A stretch of 64,000 bases of DNA from Malacoraja senta (Eukaryota), in the NCBI GenBank assembly GCA_038087875.1, contig CM075989.1:18292001-18356000 (forward strand), written 5' to 3'. This document shows positions 33,832-42,065 of the stretch, piece after piece; the stretch's first letter is position 1, and each line of letters begins with the position of its first letter. The position numbers were made by a program, and so were the translations under genes. The notes under the pieces are model-generated. The model had not been told where the DNA came from, made no database searches, and worked only from the letters and a program-made list of their open reading frames with translations.

Positions 33832-34128
33832 GGGCGGCACGGTGGCGCAGCGGTAGAGTTGCAGCCTTACAGCGCTTGCAGCGCCAGAGACCCGGGTTCG
33901 ATCCCGACTACGGGTGCTGTCTGTACGGAGTTTGTACGTTCTCCCCGTGACCGCGTGAGTTTTCTCCGAGATCTTCGGTTTTCTCCCACACTCCAGAGAC
34001 GTGCAGGTTTGTAGGTAAATTGGCTTGGTAAATGTAAAAATTGTCCCTAGTGTGTGTAGGATAGTGCTAGTGTGCGGGGATCGCTGGTCGGCGCGGACCC
34101 GGTGGGTCGAAGGGTCTGTTTCCGCCCT
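33832..34128 (+). mobile_element. HE1-type V-SINE, near full length
   Basis: A and B boxes, V-domain and CR1-like tail. It interrupts a Penelope-derived element, whose halves lie at about 33580-33830 and 34130-34220. Confidence 0.9.
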
Positions 34129-34688
34129 GTGTCCCGACCTGAAACGTCATCCATCCATGTTCTCCAGAGAGGTACTACCTGACCCGTTGAGTTACTCCAG
34201 AAATGTGTCTTTTTTTAAACCAAAAAGAGAAAGTCTTACAAGTTTAAAGTAAAGCTATCCTTCAACCTGTTGCTTGTTCTGCATTAGAAAATCTACCTGT
34301 TGAGTCAAGGTTTTACTGTTGATGTTTCAACGGCAGTAACAGTTATAGAAAATGCTTCCACTTGTTGATTGTTGGGCAATGCATCTTATACAAAACCACA
34401 GAATAACTCAAGACCAGAGGGTACTGAGGCAAGGCATCACTGAAGAAGGGTCTCGACCCAAAACGTCACCCGTTCCTTCTCTCCAGAGATGCTGCCTGTC
34501 CCGCTGAGTTACTCCAACTTTTTGTGTCTATCTTCGGTTTAAACCAACATCTGCATTTCCTTCCTACACATCACTGGGTTCAAGTTGTTAGTTAATCTTC
34601 ATGGCCCATTTATCTAACTAGATGATAGACACAAAATGCTGGAGTAACTCAGCGGGGCAGGTAGCATCTCTGGAGAGAAGGAATGGGT

Positions 34689-34716
34689 GACGTTTCGGGT
34701 CGAGACCCTTCTTCAG
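34689..34716 (-). ncRNA. Minimal hammerhead ribozyme motif
   Basis: The reverse complement reads CUGAAGA-A-GGGUCUCGACCC-GAAAC-GUC, an intact core. Confidence 0.7.
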
Positions 34717-35943
34717 ACTGATGAAGTTGTGTCTCTCTTCAGTGTAAACTAGCATCTGCAGTTTCAACCTACTAACTAACTAGACGTACGGGCTTCTAAC
34801 ACGGCATGAATCAACACTCCAGCTATTTGTGCCTATCTTCGGTTTAAGCCAGCATCTGCAGTTCCTTCCTACACCCACTGTCTATTTGTTTAACCTGTGA
34901 GATTGTGGACTGAGATTTAAAAAAATAGGAACAGCAGCATTGGACAGTACATTAAAAAGTGTGATCAATAGTAAAGATAGAAATAGTTAAGACGATTTAA
35001 AATTTAATGTGTTAAAAATAATTAGATTTTCTCAAAACGATTCAGCAATTGAAGGATTTTATCCACTTTCTTGGTTGGAGAGGTTAGAGACAATTCCCAC
35101 ATTGATAAAAGGATGCTGGCACTCTTAATGGCCAGACTTAACTTTCAGTGGCTAGTTTAATGGGCAAATCCAATGAAAATAACGAGAAGGCTAAGGGTCA
35201 GATACCAGTAATGAGAAGCAAATGATGGAGAGATCTAAATCAACAGCAAGTTCTGGAGATTCATAACTCAAAGCATTGCTTAATGCTCTGAATCTGTTGG
35301 CCGATTTGCACATTAGTAACCAAATTCCAGCCCATTATATTCTTTTGGTCGCCCATGGCTTACATTATTCGAACATTATGAAACCAAAGTTTAGTTTAGT
35401 TTAGAGATACAGAGTGGAAACAGGCCTTTCGGTCCACTGGGCCCATGCTGACCAGCAATCCCCATACACTAACACTATCCTGTACACTCCAGGGACAATT
35501 TACAATTTTACCAAGCCAATTAACCTGCAAACCTGTACGTCTTTGGAGTGCGAGATCAAACCGGAGCACCTAAAGCCCATGCAGGTCACGGGGAGAACGT
35601 ACAAGCTTTGTATAGACAGCACCCGTAGTCAGGATCGAACCCGGGTCTCTGGCGTGGTAAGGCAGTAACACGGTGCCACCCATGGTGCCCTGGTAAATTG
35701 GTGAAGTGGGTAGAAAGGAACTGCAGATGCTGTTTTACTTCGGAGTCACGTGAGTGACTACGTGAAGAAGCCCGTCAGTGCGCCTGCGCGTCATTACGTC
35801 AGACGCCTTGACGCAAACGGACGTGAGGAGCAGTGCTCCTCGAGTGGTTTGTAGTTTTTCAACTACAAGGTAAGTAAAAACTTTTTTACAGGTTTTCCAG
35901 GTCCGTTTACTGTGGGTCTATGGCGATTTTTTTCACAGACGCC

Positions 35944-37100
35944 ATGGGAAAAAACGGACAGGGGGAAGAGGCGAGCGACATAGCCGACAGAAGTCGGGAA
36001 AGTCGGGAGTCCGCGGTTAGAGACCAACCGCCTCTAAACCCCGGTACAGTCGCCAGCGGTGAGCATAGCGACTGTGGACCTGGGGCTGGTGAAAACACAG
36101 TCAGTGCCTGTCGGGCAAAAGACAAAGTTTAAATCCCAACGGAGGGAGTCCCAGGCAATTAAGAAGCTCCAGGGCTAGATACTGCTTTAGAGCGTATTGC
36201 CCAAATAGAAAGTCTTTTACACAGGCTGTTGGAGCAACGTTCACTCAGTGAGGAGTGTTCTGAAAGCCAAGCTGCTGGAAACAGCTCAAACAGCTCCTGG
36301 TACAGGGCTAGATACTGCTTTCGAGCGTATTGCCCAAATAGAAGCCTTTTTCATAGGTTGTTGGAGCAAAAGTTCACTCAGGAAGGAGTGTACTGTAATC
36401 CAAGCTGCAGGAGCAGCTTAACAGCACCTGGCTCAGGGCTGATGGAATGCACCCTCAGGAATGAGGAGCGTGCTACGGGTCATGAGATTTCAGACCCCGA
36501 CTCTGACGGTGAGGCTGTACAAGGCGATGAAAGGCAGCTGCCAGATGTTCCAACCCTGGTAGTAGGATTCGCTGCCCCGTCAGGGTCAGGAGAGCCATTA
36601 GGAAGAACTGGCCTCCTTAATAAATTACTTGGTTTACCATTAGCTGGAACAGCATGAAATGGATGAGACTGCAAGAGTTGCAGAGAATATTAAAGCTGCT
36701 GGGTTCTGGAATAACTGCTTTTACCAGAATAGCAGGTAACAACCAAAAGATGACGAAGTTGCATCAGCAAGCACTGGGGTTGCTATGCAGCACCCACTTC
36801 GAGAAGTGCTATACGGTCTACTATGAATCCGAAATTCGCAGCACTCTGCAAACCAAGTAATATACAAATTACCCAACTTACTCTTTGGAGAGATCTCGGG
36901 AGACGTATTAAAGAGTTGGAAGATGAAGCGAAAACAGGATTGATGAAGACATCAATGGTTGTGAAGTCTGTAAAGAGGAAGTATCCTTTCAGACGTCATA
37001 CGGATCCTGGACCAAGTCGCTCATCAACGCAGGGACATAGTTGGCGGCCTGCAGCGGGAGCAAGAACCAGTGGGCGTGCTTCCGGGAGAACCCAGGAATC
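35944..37100 (+). pseudogene. DIRS gag-like ORF1 remnant (frameshifted)
   Basis: Lies upstream of RT. It has coiled-coil-like segments (LDTALERIAQIESLLHRLLEQ) and DLGRRIKELEDEAK near the end, and is broken across frames. Confidence 0.55.
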
Positions 37101-37169
37101 TCAGGGTACTGAAATGACTCAAGAGGTAGGTGGACCTGGTTCTCATGGGAACATACTAACTGGATTAAG

Positions 37170-37965
37170 TCCAAAAGTTGGAGGCAGGTTACATTTCTTC
37201 TATAATAATTGGAAGAAAATTACTTCAGATGTGGTAATCCTGAATAATATACAAGGATTTCGAATTGAATTCAATCCAAATTATGATTTGCCTGTTCAGC
37301 ATGTTCCTAGCCGAACTCTGCACTTTGTACAAAAAGAAGTGATGGAGGTTCAGGTTGCAATTGAAACCCTATATTAAAAAAAAGGGGTTATTGAAAAATC
37401 AGTCTACCAAAGTCACCAATTTGTGTCAAAAATATTCCCTCGATCAAAAAAGGATGGAGGATGTAGGATTCTTGTAGATTTGATAAATCTGAATCCTTTT
37501 GTGCAATTTAGACATTTTAAAATGGAAACATTTGTGACTGCCAAACAGCTTATTTCAGAAGCATGTTATATGGCAACTATAGACTTGAAAGATGCATATT
37601 ATTCAGTGTCTGTTCATTCAGAAGATGGGAAGTATCTTAAATTTAAATGGATGAACCAGTTGTGGCAGTTCAAAGCTCTGCCTAATTGGTTAATATCTGC
37701 ACTCAGAATATTCACAAAAATTGTTAAAACCAATTCTGGGCTTGCTGAGTAGCATGTACTAATGGCATATTTGGATGATGTCTTGATTATAGAAAGACAA
37801 AACAGTCAACAGAAGTATCTGTTGCAGTTGTGAAATCAACTTTTGAAAAGTTGGGGTTTCTAATTCATCCACAGAAATCTAGGTTAACACCATGTACCTC
37901 TATTAATTATTTGGGGTTCACAATTGATTCAGTCCAAATGAATATCACTTTGCCCAGGGAAAAGG
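37170..37965 (+). pseudogene. DIRS reverse transcriptase remnant
   Basis: Motifs VGGRLHFF..NW, KKDGGCR.LVDL..LN, HFKMET, IDLKDAYY, QFKALP and YLDD (37768-37779). Disrupted by frameshifts and stops near 37377 and 37720-37750. Confidence 0.92.
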
Positions 37966-38620
37966 GTGGATTTGATTAAAGATTGCAGTAATCTCCTAAA
38001 CGAGCAAAAACCTTCAATTAGACAGGTGGCTCGTGTACTGGGAAAATTAGTAGCAGCATTCCCAGCAGTCCAATTTGGACCATTACATTATCAACAGCTG
38101 CAGAGACTTAAAGAACAGGCACCGAGAATGCATGTTGGTCATTTTGATAGAACCATGCAACTAACAACAAATGCTGTTTCTGGTCTGCAGTGGTGGATTC
38201 TACATGTCTCAAGCAGTTCCAGCAAAGTGCTGATTGAACAACCTTCCATGATATTACAAACTGATGCCAGTGCACCAGGATGGGGTGCAACTGACTTAAC
38301 ATCTAGCTGAGGAGGCAGATGGAATCAGGAAGAGTCATTGTTACTGCAGACATGGGGAATTAACTATTTGGAGCTTCTAGGATGTTTCTATGGGCTCCAA
38401 GCTTATTGTTCTAACACAACTAATAAGCATGTTCAAGTTCAAATTGATAACACAACAGTAGTTGTTTATATTAATGATATGGAATTAAGTCGGTGTCTTG
38501 TGACAAAATGGTTAATCAACTTTGGGCTTGGTGTATTGAAAAGAACATTTGGATTTCAGCTATCTATCTACCAGGTAGAATGAACGATAGCAGACACCAA
38601 GTCACGAAAAGTTCCATGAT
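37966..38620 (+). pseudogene. DIRS RNase H remnant
   Basis: Motifs LQWW, QTDASAPGWG, INYLEL and QIDNTTVV.YIN. In-frame TGA at 38308-38310. Confidence 0.88.
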
Positions 38621-38632
38621 AATAAAGAATGG

Positions 38633-39013
38633 ATGTTGAATCAAGAGGTATTCAATGATATGGTCATCAGATTTGGAATGACCGACAGCGACTTGAATCA
38701 TCAGCTATCAAGATATGTCTCATGGAAACCAGATCCAGGAGCAGTGGCGATTGATGCTTTCTCGCTACATTGGGGTGGTATGTTTTCATATATATTTCCA
38801 CCTTTCTGCCTCATAAGCCAATGTTTGCTTAAAATCAGGCAAGATGCTGCTTCAAGGGTTTTGGTAGTACCAGATTGGCCTACACAGCCATGGTATCCGT
38901 TGATATTAGAATTAACAACACAAATGTTGATGAAAGTCCCAAAAAAGAGTAATTTATTGCTGCTCCCTGTACAGGGGAACAACATCCATTATATGATCGT
39001 TTGGATTTGTTGA
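38633..39013 (+). pseudogene. DIRS DNA N6-adenine methyltransferase-like (MT) domain remnant
   Basis: DAFSLHW...YIFPPF (NPPY-like motif) and LVVPDWPTQPWYP, characteristic of the DIRS1 MT domain. Confidence 0.85.
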
Positions 39014-39028
39014 TTTGCAGGTTTTAAG

Positions 39029-39992
39029 AATGCCTTTTCTGGGACGAGGACTGTCTGAGCATACTGTGGACATGCTTACGGCAGCCTGGAGGAAGAGCAC
39101 TCAAAAACAGTACCTTTCTTATATTAAGAAATGGGAAAAGTTCTGGGTACAAAAGAATGTGCAATAAAGTACTGCAGATATTTCAAATGTTTAGAATTTC
39201 TGTCAAAACTTTATTATGATGAAGGTCTGAGTTGTAGTGCAATTAATTCAGCCAGAAGTGCATTGTCCTCATATTTGGTTCTGGATTCAGAAAGAAACTC
39301 AATTGGGTCACACCCAATTGTTTCCAGACTAATGAAAGGAATCTTTAATTCCAAAACACCGAAACCTAGGTACGTGACAATCTGGGATGTAAGTGTGGTA
39401 CTGAAACTACTTCGTGATGGTTATCAAGTGTGTCTTTACCTTTGGTCAAGCTCAGTATGAAAGTATTCATGTTTATGGCATGAGTGACAGCACAACGAGT
39501 GCAAACACTTGGAAAATTACAAATAGACAGTATGGAAGTAACTGAAGACAAGGTTACATTCTATATCTATGACCTAATAAAGCAAATTAGGCCAGGTGTG
39601 ACAGGATTTAAAATTATGCTGGCAGCATATCCAAATGATCCATGTCTTTGTATTAAGACATATTTATTACAATACATTGAGGTCACAAAGAATTTGAGAA
39701 TACGGAAACTGGGTTTTTGATCACACACAAGAAACCACACAAGAGAGTTTCAATACAGACTATTTCCAGATGGATAAAAGAAGTCTTAACAGCTGCTGGT
39801 ATTAACATTTATGTTTTTACGTCTCACTCGACTAGGGCAGCAGAAATGTCGGCGGCCAGGGCAAAAGACGGCCCCGTCGACCATATCCTCGCAGCCGCCG
39901 GGTGGTCCAATGAGTTGATGTTTCAACATTTTTACCATCGGCCTATTGTTAATGCGGGGTTGTTTGCAGAAACTATTTTAAGTTCTGTGTAA
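39029..39992 (+). pseudogene. DIRS tyrosine recombinase remnant
   Basis: INSARSALS, G.HP.V.R.MKG, TAQRVQ (catalytic R), TISRWIK, HSTRAA (HxxR) and AAGWS...FQHFY (W, Y). Split over several frames. Confidence 0.92.
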
Positions 39993-40160
39993 ATTCCTTT
40001 GGTTTAAAGGGGATCTGATTCATTTCATTCTTGAAATGAATTACTGCATTTGTGGTACAAATGTTATTATGAATGCATGATTGATTATTCTCGTTCCGAG
40101 TCAATCTATGCAGTGAGAAGCCGGGATTGATCCACGGCATGAAATCACAAAGCTTTAAAA

Positions 40161-40274
40161 TCTTCACGTAGTCACTCACGTGACTCCGAAGTAAAATAGT
40201 AAGATTAAACGAGAACTTACCTAAGTTTGAAGTTTGATCTTTATTTTATGAGGAGTTACGTAGGTGATTACGTG
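40161..40274 (+). other. DIRS internal complementary region (ICR)
   Basis: 40161-40196 is the exact reverse complement of 35733-35768. 40197-40274 is the exact reverse complement of 40427-40504. Confidence 0.95.
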
Positions 40275-41519
40275 CCCGCCACGACCCTACCCTCTATCAT
40301 AAAGGTCAGATGGAAGTTCTTGTATTACTCGTTTTAGTATGAGACTATATTACTTCGGTTCTTGTTTTTTGTGATTTCACACCGCTGCTTTGAAGATTAA
40401 CGCGCAGGCGCACTGACGGGCTTCTTCACGTAATCACCTACGTAACTCCTCATAAAATAAAGATCAAACTTCAAACTTAGGTAAGTTCTCGTTTAATCTT
40501 ACTAGTTTATACCAAAGACAGACACAAAGATTTGTGATGTTTCAGGTTGGAACCCTTCTTCTGACCCAAAAACAGCACCCATCTTTTTTCTCCCAAGAAG
40601 CTGCCTGACCCACTGAGTAATTCCAGCACCTTGTCTAAACTGCTAACGTTTTTTTCTTGGGAAATATATAGTCGACATTTCAAGTGTATATTTCAGATTG
40701 GGAAAGTCTTTGGCTCATACAGAGAGAATAGAATCCCATCTGATTTCCTATTTCAATGTTATTTCTCCATTTTCTATCTTTTTATTGTGTTCTTGTAAGT
40801 AAATGTGGCCAGAGACCCGGGTTCGATCCTAACTACGGGTACTGGCCTGTACGGAGTTTGTACGTTCTCACCGTGACCTGCGTGGGTTTTCTCCAAGATC
40901 TCTGGTTTCCTCCCACACTCCAATGAAGTACAGGTTTGTAGGTTAATTGGCTTGGTGTATAAGTAAACTGTCCCTAGTGTGTGCAGGATAGTGTTAATGT
41001 GCGGGGATCGCTGGTCGGTGCGGACTCGGTGGGCCAAAGGACCTGTTTCCACACTGTCTCTCTTAGGAAAAAAACATTAAAAAATATATAATTGGATCCC
41101 CTCAAAATTAGATTGAGGCATTTTGCCTCAAAATCTGAATGAGGAAAAGATGCAACATATTTTTCAGGTTATTGCCAGGCATAATAACAAGCTGGGGAGT
41201 GGATTGGCAGGGATAAATGAGCAACAGAGTGCATGATGCAGGTTAGATTTATAGGTAGCTAAGACTGCAAAACATCACATGAAATGAGTGATGGTTTTTG
41301 TCTTAACAAGGCAGGAACATGGAAATATTTGGTGTGGAGAAAAATCCAAATTGGAATTTTTTAATTAGTTGCAGAAAAACCTAAAGTAAGTTTGTGACAT
41401 TAGAAATGTACTGTAGTAACAGCCATGACTCCAAATCAATAATGAATCCACTTGCACACACATTAGGTGAATTCACCCAATGGGTTTTACTTCCGCAGAC
41501 AAACAAGAGGGTCTAGAAT

Positions 41520-42065
41520 CCTATTGTGAGCAATTTTTGGGCACCATATCTGAGGAAGGATGTGCTGGCTCTGGAGAGGGTCTAGAGGAGGTTTATAAGA
41601 ATGATCCCAAGAATGAGTGGATGAACCTATGATGAGCGCTTGTCGGCACTGGGCCTGTACTCGCTGGACTTTAGAAGAATGAGGGGGCAACCTCATTGAA
41701 ACATACAGAATAGTGAAAGGCTTGGATAGAGTGGATGTGGAGAGGATGTTTCCACTAGTGGGAGAGTCTAGGACCAGAGGTCATTGCCTCAGAATTAAAG
41801 GACGTTCTTTTAGGAAGGAAATGAGGAGGAATTTCTTTAGTCAGAGGTTGATGAATCTGTGGAATTCTTTGCCACAGAAGGCTGTGGAGGCTGTCGGTTG
41901 ATATTTTTACAGCAGAGATAGATAGATTCTTGATTAGTATGGATGCCAGAGGTTGTGGGAAGAAGGCAGAAGAAGGCAGGGGTTAGAAGAGAGAGATAGA
42001 TCAGCCGTGATTGAATGGTGGAGTAGACTTGAAGGGCCGATTGGCCTAATTCTATTCCTATTCCT
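41520..42065 (+). mobile_element. CR1 LINE 3' fragment
   Basis: KGLDRVDVERMFPLVGESRTRGH...NFFSQR..NLWNSLPQKAVEA followed by a CR1 3'UTR. Confidence 0.9.

Follow-up and report, generated by a model that had tools for sequence, protein, structure and literature searches.

In what form the DNA of a DIRS1-like retrotransposon meets its tyrosine recombinase (YR), and which bonds are exchanged with the target, is the question raised by an element at 35733-40504 of the window, the 64,000-nucleotide stretch of Malacoraja senta contig CM075989.1 that was analysed here. The element spans 4,772 bp with both boundaries exact and is a full-length, coding-dead DIRS1-like retrotransposon, an identity about which there is hardly any doubt; it is a new family member of a kind of element that is already known. 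It is tentatively proposed, at a probability of roughly 0.45, that the cDNA junction folds, that its antisense strand alone is exchanged by the YR and that replication resolves the product, as at integron attC sites.

The layout identifies the element. Its inverted terminal repeats (ITRs) are non-identical: they agree over 33 inner bases (35759-35791 and 40400-40432), diverge further out and are followed on the right by an extension of 47 nt; a preliminary description of this DNA had called them split, a term that belongs to the direct repeats of PAT and Ngaro elements, and membership of those groups was rejected given that the repeats are inverted. An internal complementary region (ICR) is complementary to both termini: the reverse complement of 40161-40274 equals the right end (40427-40504, 78 nt) followed by the left end (35733-35768, 36 nt) at 114/114 bases, which upholds the earlier statement that the ICR encodes the circle junction. 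Reverse transcriptase (RT), RNase H and methyltransferase (MT) domains and then the YR follow one another in the same orientation, though broken in this copy, and this order, together with the layout and the profiles of intact relatives, bears out the DIRS1-like identity that had been suggested. The flanks rejoin as a single copy of a dispersed host repeat, which we take to resemble ray short interspersed elements (SINEs), and the reconstructed empty site reads ...GCTG|GTTT.... Given that GG stands at the insertion point in 17 of the 18 other window copies of the repeat core, no target bases were duplicated or lost, in agreement with the lack of a target-site duplication noted before.

Position of the crossover at the insertion junctions

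In the literature, recombination of DIRS elements is placed between the 3-bp circle junction and an identical target triplet (PMC3266345, PMC7192593). The circle junction of the window copy is ATT, of the NTT form that DIRS1-like elements usually show again at both ends, and its ends read GTT on the left and AGT on the right because the target was GGT. This pair of ends places the crossover after the first base of the triplet (A|TT), the only position that explains both ends without extra changes; a crossover within a TTT core was rejected, given that it needs two further changes.

A first set of relatives comprised 80 loci, 40 of them with a recognisable ICR arm, and addition of the window copy gave 41 rows, of which 40 share the arrangement arm-AA, 8-nt variable spacer, TT-arm in the ICR. 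Left out of the counts were L028 (7-nt spacer, although its left end fits), the duplicates L015, L040 and L041, the apparent right ends of L014 and L015, which lie on a palindromic contig, and two rows of Table 3 of PMC3266345 with 2-nt junctions. The single contig of L014 and L015 carries two identical inverted element copies and is probably an assembly mirror. All 26 distinct left junctions of the first set begin with TT and none contains the spacer, the longest match past the cut being 4 bases; at -1 the target has A in 23 cases and G in the other 3. The 8-nt spacer is present in all 13 right junctions, exactly in 11 and with a single change in 2; the next base is T in 12 of them and the one after it is T in 11. 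Since eight elements supply both ends, these junctions represent about 31 insertion events. In a second set of 23 loci the spacer is found in 0/4 readable left ends and 2/2 complete right ends, bringing the pooled counts to 0/30 left and 15/15 right ends.

The cuts that a tyrosine recombinase makes in the two strands lie at opposite edges of a 6-8 bp spacer. Only the right-side crossover, with the antisense strand cut at AA|T, is inherited at these junctions, and the insertion scars of both sets fit one strand exchange. The eight readable triplet exceptions in Table 3 of PMC3266345 all fit the same cut, seven of them at right-end positions 2-3 and one at left-end position 1. The triplet at the crossover is AAT in all 26 junctions tallied and not the conserved AAC of integron attC; AAC occurs in other DIRS rows of the same table.

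Predicted folding of the antisense junction

Read as the antisense junction, the ICR is predicted to form a long hairpin with imperfect pairing (z -8.6 when folded as RNA). Twenty-seven distinct junctions were compared, six truncated ICRs having been dropped; as DNA, all 27 adopt the same predicted fold, and in 27/27 the antisense strand folds more stably than the sense strand, by a mean of 3.9 kcal/mol against 0.9 for shuffles. Across the junction alignment 96.6% of cells are paired and 8 of the 22 pairs show two-sided changes, which 0/500 shuffles reach, and pairing drops to 22-47% in slid controls; given that the sequences are related, this covariation may amount to perhaps four or five events, and the structure was derived from the same sequences. 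The inner stem is 99.5% paired; four of its pairs show compensation, and a T.G pair recurs in 24 of the 27 junctions. This stem is not explained by the ITRs because it lies wholly within the right extension. The AA|T cut falls where the outer stem borders the loop in which 8 nt face 6. An imperfect hairpin on one preferred strand, as at attC, is thus present by prediction and covariation, and the folded junction looks like a tyrosine-recombinase core site, a likeness from which its function may be suggested.

The YR was modelled from the intact relative L020 (predicted local distance difference test score, pLDDT, 92.7). The model is most like Cre (template modelling score, TM, ~0.7), with a TM of 0.57 to the integron integrase 2a3v, and has no helix at residues 228-249, the position at which we would expect the extra helix of IntI. 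Given this Cre-like fold, the parallel with integrons is one of mechanism and not of membership.

Proposed single-strand exchange and its alternatives

For Dictyostelium DIRS-1, Malicki et al. (PMC7192593) describe a single-stranded, mostly linear, antisense cDNA, proteins that act in trans and a requirement for the ICR after first-strand synthesis, and mention in passing the self-complementarity of the junction and a proposed priming hairpin. A circular intermediate integrated by the YR, taken as established in the preliminary description, is a model and was overstated in view of that cDNA; the inverse PCR recommended for detecting circles had already been carried out across the Dictyostelium junction and gave no product (PMC7192593). 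The bottom strand of integron attC recombines in folded form, is cut within AA|C and undergoes replicative resolution (PMC5027507).

Because of these properties of DIRS-1 cDNA and the attC precedent, exchange of a single antisense strand is favoured here over a duplex circle and over a role of the hairpin confined to RNA or end-joining. In the proposed pathway, sub-genomic RNA would be copied into antisense single-stranded cDNA, with the missing ends rebuilt from the ICR; this step has been demonstrated for Dictyostelium DIRS-1 (PMC7192593), and the 114/114 match of the present element fits it. The antisense junction would then fold on itself, the hairpin setting the ..AA and TT.. arms around the asymmetric spacer loop, and the YR would cut the antisense strand at AA|T and exchange only this strand with an R|TT target, for which 1-3 bases of likeness beside the cut would be needed. 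Replication or repair would resolve the junction, leaving one fixed crossover and no duplication. The crossover position and the junction geometry are observed and the covarying fold is predicted; we infer the strand chemistry, the action of the YR on the fold and the resolution by replication. DIRS1-like elements may in this way integrate like integron cassettes, through a hairpin site, a Cre-like YR and an AA|T x R|TT exchange, with no double-stranded circle needed. Recombination of integron attC with attI (PMC5027507) shares with this scheme a folded strand with strand bias, a bottom-strand cut after AA, minimal target likeness and one inherited crossover, whereas the clade of the element has AAT in place of AAC, the element is a eukaryotic retroelement whose YR is modelled as nearer to Cre than to IntI, and the likeness is one of sequence and prediction. 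The literature searched contained no proposal of a folded single-strand site or of an 8-nt spacer for DIRS elements; the work of Goodwin and Poulter may already note the crossover position.

Several observations weigh against single-strand exchange. The YR fold is nearer to Cre than to an integron integrase, the outer stem is the already known divergent ITR, and the fold and its wobble pair are not assignable to DNA over RNA, given that the ICR of the RNA has the identical sequence. The left end of L093 has G at +1, a counter-example to the TT rule (1/30), the inner geometry differs in L098, L102, L076 and L028, though distant elements fold too, and the sense strand of L105 folds slightly better than the antisense strand. 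The likeness of the target to the spacer exceeds composition at -2 (15/26, p 0.004) and -3 (11/26, p 0.036) and is gone by -4, but it does not reach significance at -2 and -3 when the comparison is with permuted pairings (p 0.14 and 0.08). Furthermore, the relatives are mutually related, their metagenome contigs may represent collapsed repeats, and identical scars would be expected from a double-stranded circle that undergoes one exchange.

It is possible that the ligated cDNA is made double-stranded and that the YR recombines the circle with its target over a short NTT overlap, in the classical manner or a near variant; the conserved boxes would then be duplex binding sites, and the fixed crossover would result from one exchange followed by replication, or from biased repair. 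This is the published model, and it accommodates the Cre-like fold, the deviating left end of L093 and the arms with their fixed 8-nt spacer, which are present in a duplex too. However, reciprocal exchange around a 3-bp overlap does not give a left GTT with a right AGT, nor is the spacer found in any of the 30 left ends, and binding sites alone leave the pair-specific compensatory changes and the strand-biased T.G pair unexplained. The failed junction PCR also speaks against it, although part of the single-stranded cDNA was observed to be circular and duplex circles could escape notice if integration is fast (PMC7192593). A duplex circle is considered unlikely, if the strongest of the alternatives.

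It is likewise doubtful that the hairpin acts solely before integration, either in RNA (as ICR structure, in packaging or in priming) or by holding the ends of linear cDNA for end-joining with the nick at AA|T, the YR then acting on another form. The geometry of AA, 8 nt and TT is unnecessary for a role in RNA, and the one-sided crossover is not explained by an RNA or end-joining role alone. Nevertheless, the ICR of the RNA folds as stably as noted above, a G.U pair suits RNA, and folding brings the two ends of the cDNA together precisely at the crossover. PMC7192593 cites a proposal of Poulter and Goodwin that a 3'-terminal hairpin acts as primer, and the mostly linear cDNA would suit end-joining, but deletion of the ICR did not block first-strand synthesis in the same study. 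End-joining and exchange of a folded strand are compatible and both can hold.

That the structure is an assembly artefact or due to chance, or that the element is intact and its breaks stem from sequencing errors, is very improbable and already largely refuted. Some frame changes do lie near homopolymer runs, and no reads from the same individual covered the locus; against this stand the clean host-repeat flanks, the coverage of the family end to end in the runs of three organisms, the same layout in dozens of relatives, and four in-frame stops together with a 15-nt deletion.

Coding regions, copies and relatives of the element

The coding content was mapped with Pfam on 14 fragments, with tblastn and with profiles of intact relatives. 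Of the profiles suggested in the preliminary description, RVT_1 matched two fragments (E 8.8e-5 and 4.9e-4) and Phage_integrase the last fragment (E 2.1e-5), all below cut-off, and no Dam or RNase H match was found by Pfam on the 14 window fragments. The RNase H and MT assignments rest on the intact relatives, whose profiles match RT, RNase H, MT and YR in this order on the + strand (E 2.7e-142 for pol, 4.4e-36 for the C-terminal piece of the YR). Given about eight frame changes, the four stops (Table 1) and the loss of five codons, by the 15-nt deletion, in motif I of the MT, the copy is coding-dead, and the architecture first described as complete is so in layout only, because the coding regions are broken. 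The catalytic motifs of RT, RNase H and YR remain readable. The broken ORF1 lies in the expected place and gave no match to a Pfam family; the units of its tandem duplication are 85% identical, and one contig of sequencing run X1 skips a unit-sized stretch.

Table 1. Features of the element and its flanks, in window positions (ORF, open reading frame)
Feature	Positions	Strand	Details	Evidence
Host repeat, left half	35695..35732	+	target; ends ...GCTG	rejoined flanks match other window copies
Left ITR	35733..35791	+	begins TT; 35733-35768 mirrored in ICR; 35759-35791 identical to right ITR	
ORF1	35920..37120 (limits approximate)	+	gag by position only; several frames; 133-bp tandem duplication 36170-36440	
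Reverse transcriptase	37123..37960	+	YLDD near 37768; stops 37375, 37750; frame changes near 37790, 37960	
RNase H	37961..38590	+	TDAS, NYLEL, DNTT motifs; stop 38308; frame changes near 38480, 38585	
Methyltransferase-like domain	38606..39021	+	PCIF1/CAPAM-like; motif IV YIFPPF; frame change near 38970 (38950-38990)	
Tyrosine recombinase	39012..39992	+	R, K, HSTR, W, Y present; stop 39481; frame changes near 39180 (39165-39200), 39420, 39700	
ICR	40161..40274	+	antisense copy of circle junction; crossover 40196|40197 (AA|T)	114/114 identity
Junction hairpin core	40191..40249	+	outer stem, asymmetric loop (8-nt vs 6-nt spacer), inner stem with conserved T.G, terminal stem	fold and covariation
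Sense junction copy	40314..40358	+	degenerate; between ICR and right ITR; 14/15 bases at 40344-40358	
Right ITR	40400..40457	+	inverted, partly divergent	
Right extension	40458..40504	+	47 nt, self-complementary; ends with 8-nt spacer and final A	
Host repeat, right half	40505..40640	+	begins GTTT	rejoined flanks

The MT domain, which had been described as Dam-like, is nearer in fold to PCIF1/CAPAM. For the model of the L020 domain (pLDDT 90.1), CAPAM/PCIF1 is the only family below E 0.001 in Foldseek and also ranks first by Z score (10.7; root-mean-square deviation 3.5, 144 aligned), ahead of KsgA/Erm (9.1) and T4 Dam (8.6); Pfam PF12237 (PCIF1) gives weak matches. The catalytic motif N/D-P-P-Y/F is replaced by FPPF in the window copy, and motif IV reads x-x-F-P-P-F in 56 of 58 relatives, DLFA being kept in 56. 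The domain differs from PCIF1/CAPAM in the F that begins motif IV, in having no WW domain and in being embedded in pol. Iyer et al. placed the DIRS MT in the PCIF1 clade and judged it likely inactive, whereas a preprint (10.64898/2026.05.21.726589) treats it as Dam-like, with NPP in most eukaryotic members, and reports no gain of N6-methyladenine in E. coli. For the clade of this element a non-catalytic binding role is the likelier reading, in which the domain would bind nucleic acid without methylating it.

Four sequencing runs of 15 (X1, X4, X6 and X10) were compared with the element stretch and gave 63,295, 307, 134 and 0 matching contigs, respectively. The element is covered in 30/30 bins in X1 and X4 and in 28/30 in X6, indicating a multi-copy family in the runs of three organisms, and an X1 contig likewise begins to fit at 35733, the left boundary. 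The listed X4 and X6 pieces differ from the window copy by about 2% (38/2,036 and 51/2,383 bases). In X4 a 2-base indel occurs, at nearly all depth, both at ICR position 40222 and at the matching right-end position 40478, a pairing to be expected if the ends are copied from the ICR. Had 1-2% of decay followed insertion, the probability of 0 differences in 137 paired bases would be 0.065-0.004; on this moderate evidence, much of the decay probably preceded the last move, which would fit mobilisation in trans of an already defective copy by the proteins of other copies. Three X1 contigs each link host repeats to the reversed right end plus TT, at the joints 35732->40195 and 35653->40195, hinting at further opposite-strand insertions in the same host repeats.

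The intact relatives lie on contigs of metagenomes and metagenome-assembled genomes (MAGs), are 40-52% identical and probably have invertebrate hosts. Twenty-three DIRS-like pol matches (L086-L108) are on contigs of bacterial MAGs, many of them binned as symbionts, and are probably mis-binned host DNA; viral contigs contained no protein relative, and their five pattern matches all occur without DIRS proteins. The closest named protein is Amblyraja radiata LOC116990664, annotated as uncharacterized, with 63% (RNase H) and 67% (MT) identity, at which distance it represents a different family. According to Table 3 of PMC3266345, LgDIRS1, LgDIRS3 and AcaDIRS1-2, of mollusc or cnidarian type, share with the element ITRs, an ICR, a right extension, an ATT junction and no long overlap of reading frames. 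The sizes are close (conserved ITR ~33 nt against 31-36 in these rows; extension 47 nt against 48-49; ICR 36+78 against 39-45 and 86-88), whereas the fish, frog and lizard rows have a conserved ITR of 102-148 nt and an extension of 26-34. Unlike LgDIRS1, LgDIRS3 and AcaDIRS1-2, the element lies in a vertebrate host, probably a skate, is coding-dead and was inserted at GGT. Dictyostelium DIRS-1 likewise has an ICR complementary to both termini, gag, RT-RNase H-MT and YR, and no target-site duplication, but its ICR is 88 nt against 114, the ITRs of the present element are short, and DIRS-1 inserts in its own copies and not in a host repeat (PMC7192593). The literature search returned no report on DIRS elements in cartilaginous fish.

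Further features surround the junction sequences. The degenerate sense junction copy could pair with the ICR centre (z 3.9, 2/500 shuffles) and is also significant in L001 (z 5.5) and L020 (z 9.3); it is absent from the nine other relatives tested and, present in 3 of 12 elements, is not general. It may be a duplication that survives as a relic within a sub-clade, or it may serve as a switch by which the ICR is masked. The RNA fold also has a 17-nt inverted pair (40135-40151 and 40368-40384) that surrounds the ICR hairpin. A near-invariant GGTAAG in the right extension (40478-40487), to be read with the proviso that the motif search itself required part of it and that L095 and L102 differ, is a 5' splice-site consensus, and its ICR mirror (40214-40222) presumably resembles the 5' end of the U1 small nuclear RNA. 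A 69-nt intron in the 5' untranslated region is suggested at 35870-35938, where a clean splice donor is combined with an acceptor rich in pyrimidines just 5' of an ATG in good context (35944). It was rejected as a general feature: a donor-like site occurs in 6 of 21 relatives, compared with 3 for the reverse strand and 0 for the internal control. More distantly, another high-copy repeat, which we also take to resemble a ray SINE, flanks the element in two inverted copies (35403-35668 and 40774-41063, 79%), and there are no Rfam matches within 34000-42000.

By itself the element adds one more DIRS1-like family, notable only because a genome of cartilaginous-fish type harbours termini of the invertebrate type. 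The mismatched target, together with the relatives, pins the crossover to one phosphodiester and names a folded substrate of 60 nt. DIRS integration has rested on a model of 1985, and the question is now reducible to an oligonucleotide cleavage assay with compensatory mutants. If exchange of the single antisense strand is true, DIRS1-like elements would possess a eukaryotic, retroelement-borne system of single-strand site-specific recombination, which would account for the failure to find a double-stranded circle, and a recombinase able to place folded single strands of DNA into 3-base targets of eukaryotic cells would be of technical interest as well.

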